A DNA stretch of 64,000 bases from Candidatus Aenigmatarchaeota archaeon (lineage in GTDB: Archaea; Aenigmatarchaeota; Aenigmatarchaeia; GW2011-AR5): the NCBI GenBank assembly GCA_016187335.1, contig JACPJW010000001.1, positions 448,001-512,000 on the forward strand, written 5' to 3'. Below, one piece after another: positions 15,654-17,564 of this stretch (position 1 is its first letter; the number at the start of each line of letters is the position of its first letter). The translations under genes were made by a program, and so were the position numbers. The notes under the pieces are model-generated. The model was not told where the DNA came from. It searched no databases and saw nothing but the letters and a program-made list of their open reading frames with translations.

Positions 15654-15834
15654 GCGATGGTAGTCTAGGAACCCTTTTTCTCGTTGCGCTCGAAAAAGCG
15701 TTCACGGAAAATGGGTTGGAAGATGGTAGGATACAACCTTGCCAACGGCCCTTTTCAAAAAGCGCCGGCGGAAAATGCAAACAGGTTGAGAGGCGAAAGC
15801 CCGACAAACCCGGGTTCAAATCCCGGCCGTCGCA
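15654..15834 (+). tRNA. tRNA-Gly(GCC) with three introns (15670-15722 D-loop, 15745-15782 at 37/38, 15791-15807 variable loop)
   Basis: GCGATGG/CCGTCGC acceptor, CAACC-TTGCCA|A-GGTTG anticodon arm, AG|AC variable loop, CCGGG-TTCAAAT-CCCGG T arm. BHB central helices TCTA/TGGA, TTGC/GCAA and GTTG/CGAC. Confidence 0.9.
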
Positions 15835-15928: not shown

Positions 15929-16411
15929 ATGTTCTTCAAAAAGAAAGACAATTACGAGGAAATAAAGCGCGCCGTTGAAGAGCCTGTTTCTTCCGAGCCG
16001 ACATTGCAGGACCTGGAAATAGAGGACCTGCCGCCGGAAATGCGCTACGACAAGAATTATGCGGAGCCCCGGGACAGCGCGCCTCTTTTCGTCAAGGTGG
16101 AGAAGTACAAGGAACTGATAGGCCTCATACAGGAAATGCGGGCATTTACAAACGGATTGAAGCAGACGTTTTCTGTGATACACGAGTCTGATGCGCTGCG
16201 CAACGATGCCGTTAAAATCATGCGCACGACGGTCCAGCGGCTGGACAAGACCTTGGCAGAAATTGACAGCGAGCTGGTAAGGCCGCGCGGCATTGACATG
16301 GAAAAGCCGCCTTACGCCGGCAGCGAAATGAAATACATTGAAGGATCGCTGTCAGAATTGCAGCGCCATTTGGCTGTTTTGCGCAAGGATCTGCAGGAAA
16401 TGAAGGAATGA
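15929..16411 (+). CDS. Coiled-coil hypothetical protein
   Basis: PLFVKVEKYKEL followed by long heptad repeats. Confidence 0.65.
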   Translation: MFFKKKDNYEEIKRAVEEPVSSEPTLQDLEIEDLPPEMRYDKNYAEPRDSAPLFVKVEKYKELIGLIQEMRAFTNGLKQTFSVIHESDALRNDAVKIMRTTVQRLDKTLAEIDSELVRPRGIDMEKPPYAGSEMKYIEGSLSELQRHLAVLRKDLQEMKE

Positions 16412-16460
16412 TCAGGTTATCTGGTTCTTAAATATTTCATCAAAAATTACTACATTCAGT

Positions 16461-16732
16461 GCGGCCGTCGCCAAGAGGCCCTTTTTAGAAAAAAGCGTCT
16501 ACGGAAAAACTAAAAAGCGTCTGGAAATCTGGTCAAAGGCGCGGGTTTCACTTGAGTGTTGATGCGCAAGCAGGTGAAAGCGTAACTCAAGGCAGCTGAC
16601 GAGGCTGACGCACTTCGTGCGTCATGCTGTTTGATATCCCGTCGGTTAGTCCGTTCGGCGGTTCGAATGCACCCTTTCTTAGAAAGAAAGCGTGCACGGA
16701 AAGAAATGGTGCCGAAAATCCGCCCGGCCGCA
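16461..16732 (+). tRNA. tRNA-Leu(CAA) with four introns (16476-16527 at 15/16, 16546-16584 at 30/31, 16592-16635 at about 37/38, 16668-16718 at 59/60)
   Basis: Spliced sequence GCGGCCG TC GCCAAG|TCTGGTCAAAGGC G CGGG|A CTCAAG|A TCCCG TCGGTTAGTCCGTTC GGCGG TTCGAA|T CCGCC CGGCCGC A is a standard archaeal Leu cloverleaf. The 59/60 BHB is perfect and the others are relaxed. Confidence 0.88.
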
Positions 16733-16790
16733 TTTATTCAATTTTCGCTTCACCAAAACCCTTAAAACCGCTCACTTTAAAGTAGCAACC

Positions 16791-17564
16791 ATGGATGAGT
16801 ACCTGCTGACAGTGGGCATCGGCGTATTGATTCTTGCGCTCCTGCTGCTGATAACGAATGCCCAGTTCATAACCGGCGCCGCCCCTTCAAGGCAGCTTGT
16901 CCCGGCTACGAGCGTTTTTGACCTTGGCAGTTTCAGCTCAACCTTCGTCAAGGAAACGAAAACTTATGATTTGGGCAGCAAGGAAGTGTCTAATGGTGTT
17001 TTGTTTGGCGAAAACAAGCTGGAGTTCCACGCAGAAGCGCCTGAGATCGAATCAGCACTGGTAAAATTCCGTGTCGCGCGCATGAATGACCTGGGACCTC
17101 TTTTCGTGAAGTACAACGGCGACGTCGTTGAAAAAAAGCGCTACGCTGCGGGGGATTATGCCGTAAGAGTGCCAAAAGAAATGCTTAACGAATCAAGCAC
17201 CATTGAAATGTCTGCTTCATCATCGCTTTGGCAGTTCTGGGCGCCCAATATCTACAGCCTCAGGAATATAAATCTTATAGTGAAATCCTTTGATTTCAGC
17301 CCCGCGGAGCTTAACTTCACGCTTGGCGAGGAATACACAACGCTGAAGCAGGGAAGGATTGAGTTCAGCTTAGAAGAAAACACTGGAAGAATGGCTGTTG
17401 TTCTCAACGGGAAAGAAATCATGAATGATTTTGCGCGCAACGAGCAGTCCGTGCCATTCAGCAAAGAGGAAGCGAGAGCAGGGGAAAACAAAATAAGGAT
17501 TGTGCCGCTGCAGGGCTCGCGCTTCAGCGGAACTGCGCATGTTGTCGTGTTTTGGGAGAAATAG
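16791..17564 (+). CDS. N-terminally anchored beta-sandwich surface protein
   Basis: Hydrophobic N-terminus from ATG 16791. The track's 16692 start lies inside the tRNA intron. Confidence 0.7.
   Translation: MDEYLLTVGIGVLILALLLLITNAQFITGAAPSRQLVPATSVFDLGSFSSTFVKETKTYDLGSKEVSNGVLFGENKLEFHAEAPEIESALVKFRVARMNDLGPLFVKYNGDVVEKKRYAAGDYAVRVPKEMLNESSTIEMSASSSLWQFWAPNIYSLRNINLIVKSFDFSPAELNFTLGEEYTTLKQGRIEFSLEENTGRMAVVLNGKEIMNDFARNEQSVPFSKEEARAGENKIRIVPLQGSRFSGTAHVVVFWEK

Follow-up and report, generated by a model that had tools for sequence, protein, structure and literature searches.

Archaeal splice sites are located in two 3-nt bulges, which are on opposite strands and are separated by a 4-bp helix. 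The number of introns in archaeal transfer RNA (tRNA) genes was given as three at most both by Fujishima et al. 2011 (PMC3239211) and in the tRNAscan-SE 2.0 paper of 2021 (PMC8450103), and four-intron tRNAs were afterwards tabulated in Freyarchaeia and Atabeyarchaeia (Valentin-Alvarado et al., 2024; PMC11291895, Supplementary Data 4). The gene described here is located at positions 16461-16732, on the forward strand, of a stretch of 64,000 nt from a Candidatus Aenigmatarchaeota archaeon (positions 448,001 to 512,000 of contig JACPJW010000001.1, assembly GCA_016187335.1). This whole stretch is called the window, and coordinates without a contig prefix refer to it. Sequence analysis and comparison with orthologues confirmed that 16461-16732 is a real tRNA-Leu(CAA) gene, divided into five exons by four endonuclease-type introns. 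Very probably it is the working tRNA-Leu(CAA) gene of this groundwater archaeon, a member of the DPANN group with a genome of about 1 Mb. The original prediction had placed the four introns at or beyond the known extreme. They are at that extreme and not beyond it: four equals the tabulated maximum of the Asgard archaea, and one orthologue of this same gene has five.

The closest described cases are the tRNA-Ile2(CAT) and tRNA-Arg(TCT) of the Asgard Freyarchaeia (PMC11291895), which likewise contain four endonuclease-type introns and exons of less than 10 nt; both they and the gene studied here belong to genomes in which most tRNA genes are split. However, the present gene comes from a DPANN lineage, the Aenigmatarchaeota, decodes as another isoacceptor, and its introns are long (39-52 nt), two of them being copies of a dispersed module. 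The Asgard genes are listed in a table, and neither their motifs nor their splicing order were analysed there. [quoted passage not shown] The maximum published for Thermoproteales according to these two papers is three introns, against four here, and the genome studied here also differs in having one single-unit endonuclease gene with a different C-terminal insertion. Finally, ARMAN-2 (Candidatus Micrarchaeum; Fujishima et al., 2011; PMC3239211) is also a DPANN archaeon of about 1 Mb with most of its tRNA genes split, and it shares introns at 59/60 and at other non-canonical sites as well as relaxed motifs. Its endonuclease is a three-unit epsilon2 enzyme, unlike the one described below, and no four-intron tRNA was reported from it. 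The mechanism is a known one, and the novelty lies in the lineage and the isoacceptor, in a one-unit endonuclease accompanying such a gene, and in how dense the comparative data are.

The gene is organized as follows, with all its parts on the forward strand. Exon 1 (16461-16475, 15 nt) provides tRNA positions 1-15, that is, the 5' strands of the acceptor stem and the D-stem and the start of the D-loop. It is followed by intron 1 (16476-16527, 52 nt), inserted at site 15/16 and carrying a relaxed HBh' motif; exons 1 and 2 are contiguous in those orthologues that have no 15/16 intron. Exon 2 (16528-16545, 18 nt) comprises positions 16-30, with the rest of the D-loop, the 3' strand of the D-stem and the first four bases of the anticodon stem. 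After intron 2 (16546-16584, 39 nt; site 30/31, relaxed motif) comes exon 3, a micro-exon of only 7 nt (16585-16591, ACTCAAG) that covers positions 31-37 and carries the anticodon CAA, as had been proposed; the same micro-exon is present in orthologues. Intron 3 (16592-16635, 44 nt) occupies the canonical site 37/38. Exon 4 (16636-16667, 32 nt; positions 38-59) contains the 3' strand of the anticodon stem, the long variable arm, the 5' strand of the T-stem and most of the T-loop. Intron 4 (16668-16718, 51 nt), at site 59/60, has a strict hBHBh' motif, and exon 5 (16719-16732, 14 nt; positions 60-73) completes the molecule with the end of the T-loop, the 3' strands of the T-stem and the acceptor stem, and the discriminator A73. 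The gene's DNA stops at A73 and does not encode the CCA end. The borders of introns 1 to 3 cannot slide. For intron 4, the sequence alone would permit any position from 57/58 to 59/60, and the bulge-helix-bulge register is only found at 59/60.

When the four introns were removed in silico, the resulting 86-mer was recognized by ARAGORN as tRNA-Leu(CAA), with an acceptor stem of 7/7 pairs, anticodon and T stems of 5 bp each, a long variable arm and A73. The isotype, the four intron lengths and the four sites had all been given correctly in the original prediction. The product has the features of a class II tRNA-Leu with anticodon CAA, including a 7-nt anticodon loop with U33 and a purine at position 37, G18-G19 and a T-loop TTCGAAT; all of these features, with the long variable arm and A73, are common to the orthologues. 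With four introns, three of them at non-canonical sites, the gene belongs to the multiple-intron class. It lacks the signs of a pseudogene, all stems being perfect and the lineage-specific changes being compensated. The unspliced gene, in contrast, was not called as a tRNA by ARAGORN and gave no match to the Rfam tRNA model, either at the gathering score or at E values up to 10, so that the expectation that standard finders would miss it held true for these two.

The bulge-helix-bulge geometry was scored at the four fixed junction pairs. Intron 4 presents a strict motif, in which the outer helix of 5 bp is the T stem, the central helix has 4/4 pairs and the inner helix 5 bp. Relaxed motifs were found for intron 2 (outer helix of 2 bp, central 3/4, inner hairpin of 8 bp) and for intron 1 (no outer helix, central 3/4, inner helix of 3+4 bp), and the orthologous introns at these two sites follow the same registers. 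The motif of intron 3 is different. In the primary transcript it has an outer helix of 1 bp, a central helix of 2/4 and an inner helix of 4 bp; after the removal of intron 2 the outer helix grows to 6 bp, formed by the anticodon stem. The two central pairs are C32:G and A35:U, with U-U and C-U oppositions between them, and between the anticodon stem and the 4-bp inner helix the spacing is 7x7, precisely as in a bulge-helix-bulge. The weight of these motifs was estimated at random sites of the genome with the same spacing, as the fraction that scored at least as well as the observed motif. This fraction was <5e-6 for intron 4, 0.0014 for intron 2, 0.046 for intron 1 and 0.044 for intron 3, the last one falling to 0.0012 once intron 2 was out.

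For the comparative analysis, 70 genomes of the same order were searched for the exact core of the variable arm, which lies in exon 4, and it was found exactly conserved in 33 of them. The loci were aligned with a spliced aligner that used the stem sequences of each locus itself. At 22 loci, which represent 15 distinct mature sequences, the spliced products were accepted by ARAGORN as tRNA-Leu(CAA); the 14 distinct mature sequences other than that of the present gene, all orthologous and from related Aenigmatarchaeota, were found only after splicing. The spliced tRNA is 81-90% identical to the spliced orthologues (more than 20 related loci). Among the 15 mature sequences, compensatory changes were observed in the acceptor stem (4:69, 5:68 and 6:67), the anticodon stem (28:42 and 29:41) and the T stem (50:64 and 51:63). 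Doubtful 'CAA' calls with the anticodon stem CAAGG/CCTTG, all from one genus (e.g., locus L109), were left out of this count. In the present gene, the acceptor stem GCGGCCG/CGGCCGC and the anticodon stem CGGGA/TCCCG both differ from the common forms on the two strands. Because the stems of the orthologues differ by compensatory changes, selection appears to act on the spliced product, and these stems argue against both chance and a long-standing decay.

The orthologues contain from one to five introns each, distributed over seven sites (15/16, 17/17a, 20a/20b, 21/22, 30/31, 37/38 and 59/60). None of the four sites used by the present gene is occupied in every relative, and sister genomes within one genus differ in their intron sets. 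The intron content of tRNA-Leu(CAA) turns over quickly among these relatives. The pair formed by the 30/31 and 37/38 introns, with an identical ACTCAAG micro-exon between them, is present in at least 12 genomes and is, for this reason, old in the family. Two orthologues deserve a separate description. One, from another genus of the family (L123:1298-1591, forward strand; G016:C15, about 2667-2960), has five introns of 84, 13, 20, 41 and 50 nt at 17/17a, 21/22, 30/31, 37/38 and 59/60, with central helices of 4/4, 4/4, 4/4, 4/4 and 3/4; this is one intron above the four tabulated for Asgard archaea (PMC11291895, Supplementary Data 4). The other (L111:1477-1749, reverse strand; G051:C37) has four introns of 124, 14, 37 and 12 nt at 15/16, 20a/20b, 30/31 and 37/38, and two other genomes of its genus have only three of these.

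The four motifs were not shown by the minimum-free-energy fold of the whole precursor alone. The cost of adopting each motif was instead obtained by constrained ensemble folding in every splicing intermediate. It was about 2 kcal/mol for intron 4 and about 3 kcal/mol for intron 1, whichever other introns had been removed, and 7-9 kcal/mol for intron 2. For intron 3 it amounted to 16 kcal/mol with intron 2 present and to 11-12 kcal/mol after its removal. In the centroid structure of the intermediate without introns 1, 2 and 4, a 7x7 internal loop lies between the anticodon stem and the 4-bp inner helix of intron 3; on this modelled structure, the loop may be read as a bulge-helix-bulge in which decay has left only two pairs of the central helix.

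From these costs across the intermediates an order of removal can be predicted, in which introns 1 and 4 would leave freely, intron 2 would follow and intron 3 would be the last. According to this model, a precursor of about 272 nt with its four introns would be transcribed from the gene, and the single tRNA-splicing endonuclease of the cell would cut the 3-nt bulges at every exon-intron border; RtcB would join the exon ends, and CCA would be added later. Introns 4 and 1, which fold cheaply into their motifs, could be removed at any time, and intron 2 would already offer its relaxed motif in the primary transcript. Intron 3 would most likely be the last, because its outer helix, the anticodon stem, arises only when intron 2 has been removed and exons 2 and 3 are joined. 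If intron 2 leaves before intron 3, the 7-nt anticodon exon would therefore never be a free fragment. An ordered splicing had been anticipated from a competition of the 30/31 and 37/38 motifs for the same bases. Some overlap does exist, limited to C32-U33: the 30/31 motif pairs these two bases in its weak outer helix of 2 bp, and C32-A35 are required by the 37/38 motif. However, the stronger ground for the order is that the 37/38 motif cannot do without an anticodon stem that is already joined, and not the competition for bases. A similar order has been described in the red alga Cyanidioschyzon merolae, whose three-intron nuclear tRNA-Ile(UAU) is likewise interrupted in the D-arm, at 37/38 and within the T-loop, and for which reverse transcription PCR showed that the outer introns are removed first and the 37/38 intron last (PMC3728597). 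That order matches the one proposed here, although it was demonstrated experimentally in a eukaryote with three introns and is predicted here for an archaeon with four.

Intron 2 contains an element, CTTGAGT (16551-16557, forward strand), which is the full complement of the 7-nt anticodon exon. A complement of 6-9 nt to the micro-exon is also present in 12 of the 14 distinct orthologous 30/31 introns, whose lengths range from 20 to 90 nt. The probability that CTTGAGT pairs with the micro-exon was only 0.25 at the stage of the primary transcript and dropped to about 0 once introns 1 and 4 were out, and the inner hairpin of intron 2 formed with a probability of 0.74-1.0. The element could be a relic of the origin of the 30/31 intron. 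A functional alternative would be that the 30/31 and 37/38 introns make the anticodon a 7-nt cassette and that CTTGAGT masks the 37/38 signal until intron 2 is gone. Such a lock, encoded in the RNA, would keep the 7-nt exon from being released and lost, and the layout could let leucine genes exchange anticodon segments or choose alternatively among them. The cassette layout is conserved across the family, and in this genome both tRNA-Leu(CAA) and tRNA-Leu(UAA) have it. However, this functional idea was considered doubtful because the pairing of CTTGAGT is a minor conformer (0.25 at most). In a search for a second anticodon exon in the present gene the sole candidate was the complement ACTTGAG; it was rejected because its anticodon would be UGA, for serine, and because it lacks splice motifs. 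Elsewhere in the genome, a third class II leucine-type gene (C2:49182-49340, reverse strand) has two mutually complementary anticodon-like segments between the halves of its anticodon stem, CTTAGG for UAG and CCTGAGG for GAG.

As to where the introns came from, introns 1 and 4 are mutually related, each of them is also related to about 20 other sites of the genome, and both have matches in many related genomes. They are members of a dispersed family of intron modules spread over many tRNA genes. Intron 1 matches the 15/16 intron of tRNA-Leu(UAA) (C2:161429-161464) with 92% identity along 36 nt. Intron 4 matches C2:455596-455634 with 97% identity along 39 nt and, with 94% along 48 nt, also the 59/60 intron of that same tRNA-Leu(UAA) (C2:161612-161659). 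In this tRNA-Leu(UAA) gene (C2:161412-161673) four introns occupy the same four positions and measure 52, 30, 44 and 52 nt. Its micro-exon is likewise of 7 nt, ACTTAAG, and further anticodon-like hairpins (CTTAAG and CTAAGA/CTTAGC) are found in its third intron. Introns 1 and 4 are 92-94% identical between the CAA and UAA genes, and exon 4 only 75%, the pattern of a transposed intron family. Since the introns are more alike than exon 4, the module-type introns must have been exchanged or inserted after the divergence of the two genes. Near-identical introns across tRNA genes are also known from the transposed introns of Thermoproteales (Fujishima et al., 2010, as cited in PMC3239211), with values of 92-97% in the present genome; compared with that account, the module described here is common to many genera.

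The two inner introns have other relationships. No paralogue of intron 2 was found in the genome. Intron 3 forms a 6-bp hairpin with a CUUCG loop, and its core recurs at two other loci, C2:821340-821580 (reverse strand) and C1:32898-32921; the former copy is nested within a module-type intron of another split tRNA-like gene. By eye, a similar hairpin was also recognized in the 59/60 intron of an orthologue from genome G017 (L005:1536-1566), which starts with GCAGACTGACG, compared with GCAGCTGACG... in the 37/38 intron at 16592-16635. This resemblance suggests that one intron family may occupy different positions in different genomes. Another split gene, tRNA-Gly(GCC), lies about 630 nt upstream in the window (15654-15834, forward strand), apparently with one intron in the D-loop, another at about 37/38 and a third in the variable region. 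Of these three, two are copies of the module seen in introns 1 and 4, and the gene was mis-called by ARAGORN as Glu(CTC) with one intron of 104 nt.

The genome has 1.01 Mb in two contigs, a G+C content of 47% and an estimated completeness of 90.8%. Only 12 tRNA matches passed the Rfam cut-off in the whole genome and, as a consequence, most of its tRNA genes must be split. ARAGORN reported 23 tRNAs, several of them with implausible single 'introns' of 100-1000 nt. The only splicing-endonuclease gene (C2:410.5-411.0 kb) encodes a protein of 202 aa with the domains PF01974 and PF02778, and one gene for the RtcB ligase (PF01139) is present at C2:765.2-766.4 kb. The closest relatives of the endonuclease, with 54-90% identity, come nearly all from metagenome-assembled genomes of Candidatus Aenigmatarchaeota, or labelled only 'archaeon', many of them from groundwater. 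Its best relatives of solved structure are the subunit of the alpha4 homotetramer of Methanocaldococcus jannaschii and the catalytic alpha subunit of Nanoarchaeum equitans, and the enzyme is presumably a homotetramer too. As a one-unit protein of 202 aa, it is not of the three-unit epsilon2 type of ARMAN-2. For this reason, and given that its close relatives belong to Aenigmatarchaeota, an assignment of the genome to ARMAN-2, which its size of 1 Mb and its G+C content of 47% had suggested, was rejected. A lysine-rich insertion is common to the N. equitans and ARMAN-2 enzymes and absent from those of M. jannaschii and Methanopyrus kandleri; it was named the L3 loop by Kaneta et al. 2018 (PMC5829648). 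One-unit L3 enzymes were defined here as having only one alpha unit, about 170-200 aa long, and an additional lysine-rich stretch ahead of the catalytic His region, and the present protein is one of them: its segment GVQLKKGPKSAKEH aligned without gaps to 3iey_A (N. equitans alpha), whereas 1a79 and 5x89 have a gap of six residues. In several DPANN lineages, one-unit L3 enzymes co-occur with a heavy disruption of tRNA genes (Kaneta et al., 2018; PMC5829648).

The original prediction had also advised looking for another tRNA-Leu(CAA) in the genome. None was found with ARAGORN, the Rfam model, a spliced-alignment scan or a variable-arm pattern, although a strongly diverged and heavily split copy would escape these four types of search. 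UUG represents 12% of the leucine codons and is commoner than UUA. As to the assembly, the region 16200-17000 is spanned without differences by single contigs from two runs of one study, which may be the source of this DNA, and all the sampled words occur in four runs of that study. In an independent study, with a depth of 3-5x, 16351-16519 and 16624-17000 are covered, also without differences. An exact 20-nt pattern across the junctions of exon 3 gave no match in the metagenome contigs of JGI. One joint seen in the read layout, which skips 53 nt (16632/16686), was explained by the paralogous module at C2:8214xx and is not a spliced form.

Several points weigh against a working gene and must be set against these data. 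With only 2/4 pairs, intron 3 has the poorest central helix in the set of orthologues, where the others have 3-4 pairs, and its removal could be slow or could fail. The incomplete genome means that a second tRNA-Leu(CAA) could have been missed. In addition, tRNA-Leu(UAA) might read UUG by wobble, in which case the CAA gene would not be strictly essential. Finally, the independent reads leave 16520-16623 uncovered, a part that takes in everything from exon 2 to the start of intron 3. Taken to their end, the first of these points would make this a decaying gene or pseudogene that was functional until recently, whose degenerate intron 3 motif now blocks maturation while tRNA-Leu(UAA) takes over UUG. 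The cost of that motif, still 11-12 kcal/mol when intron 2 is out, and the presence of a tRNA-Leu(UAA) gene would fit such a decay. However, it is difficult to reconcile with mature stems that are all perfect and in which the lineage-specific changes are compensated on both strands, with the exact 7x7 spacing retained around intron 3 and with the good motifs of the other three introns. Moreover, no other source of the anticodon CAA was found, and UUG is the commoner of the two codons. For these reasons we regard decay as unlikely.

The gap in the independent coverage raises a different question, whether the repeated intron modules could have produced a chimeric join from a true gene with fewer introns. 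Introns 1 and 4 belong to a dispersed repeat with some 20 related copies each, and the contigs of the low-coverage study do break inside the gene. Read support had been named from the start as decisive for this locus, and it was obtained in part: the source-like contigs cross the whole gene without differences and the independent study agrees on both sides of the uncovered 16520-16623, with no differences at the junction of exon 1 with intron 1 or at those that join exon 4, intron 4 and exon 5. The introns of that part, 2 and 3, are not repeats that could be mis-joined, intron 2 being unique, and orthologues have introns at the same sites. An assembly artefact is, in consequence, very improbable. 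As for a chance resemblance, in which five unrelated fragments would happen to form a cloverleaf, nothing speaks for it except the general point that 7-nt exons are easy to find. The product of the four random-site frequencies, with intron 2 out and independence assumed, is <1e-12; the fragments are collinear and lie inside an intergenic gap, and their spliced product has the 81-90% identity to orthologues already mentioned. Chance was therefore excluded. The interpretation of 16461-16732 as a working tRNA-Leu(CAA) gene is thus the one that we retain.

The gene occupies a gap of 380 nt between protein genes, which is bordered by a 160-aa open reading frame (ORF) ending at 16411 and by a downstream gene with an in-frame ATG at 16791. 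The ORFs called across the tRNA gene, which had been suspected to be spurious, turned out to be so: they are frames of 44-53 aa together with a GTG-extended frame of 290 aa that runs from 16692 and has the in-frame ATG at 16791. By eye, a TATA-like A/T-rich box, TTAAATATTT, was located at 16428-16437 (forward strand), about 24-33 nt 5' of the tRNA start, and was taken as a putative archaeal promoter. A T-rich tract, TTTATTCAATTTTC, also recognized by eye, follows directly 3' of A73 (16733-16746, forward strand) and is a likely stop of transcription. A small RNA inside an intron was sought as well, and no Rfam family was found in 16380-16820 at E<0.1.

The present gene is a further four-intron tRNA, well documented, and it comes from a DPANN lineage in which ARAGORN and the Rfam tRNA model fail to see most tRNA genes. 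Given that no more than about 12-23 tRNA genes are detected with these two in this genome, annotations of such archaea, and the inferences of 'missing tRNAs' drawn from them, are unreliable. The one to five introns found at seven sites across sister genera make up a compact natural data set on the gain and loss of tRNA introns in archaea. Furthermore, the degenerate 37/38 motif together with the 7-nt exon provides a substrate for probing the limits of specificity of a one-unit endonuclease with the DPANN insertion, and also for asking whether the order of splicing is enforced.

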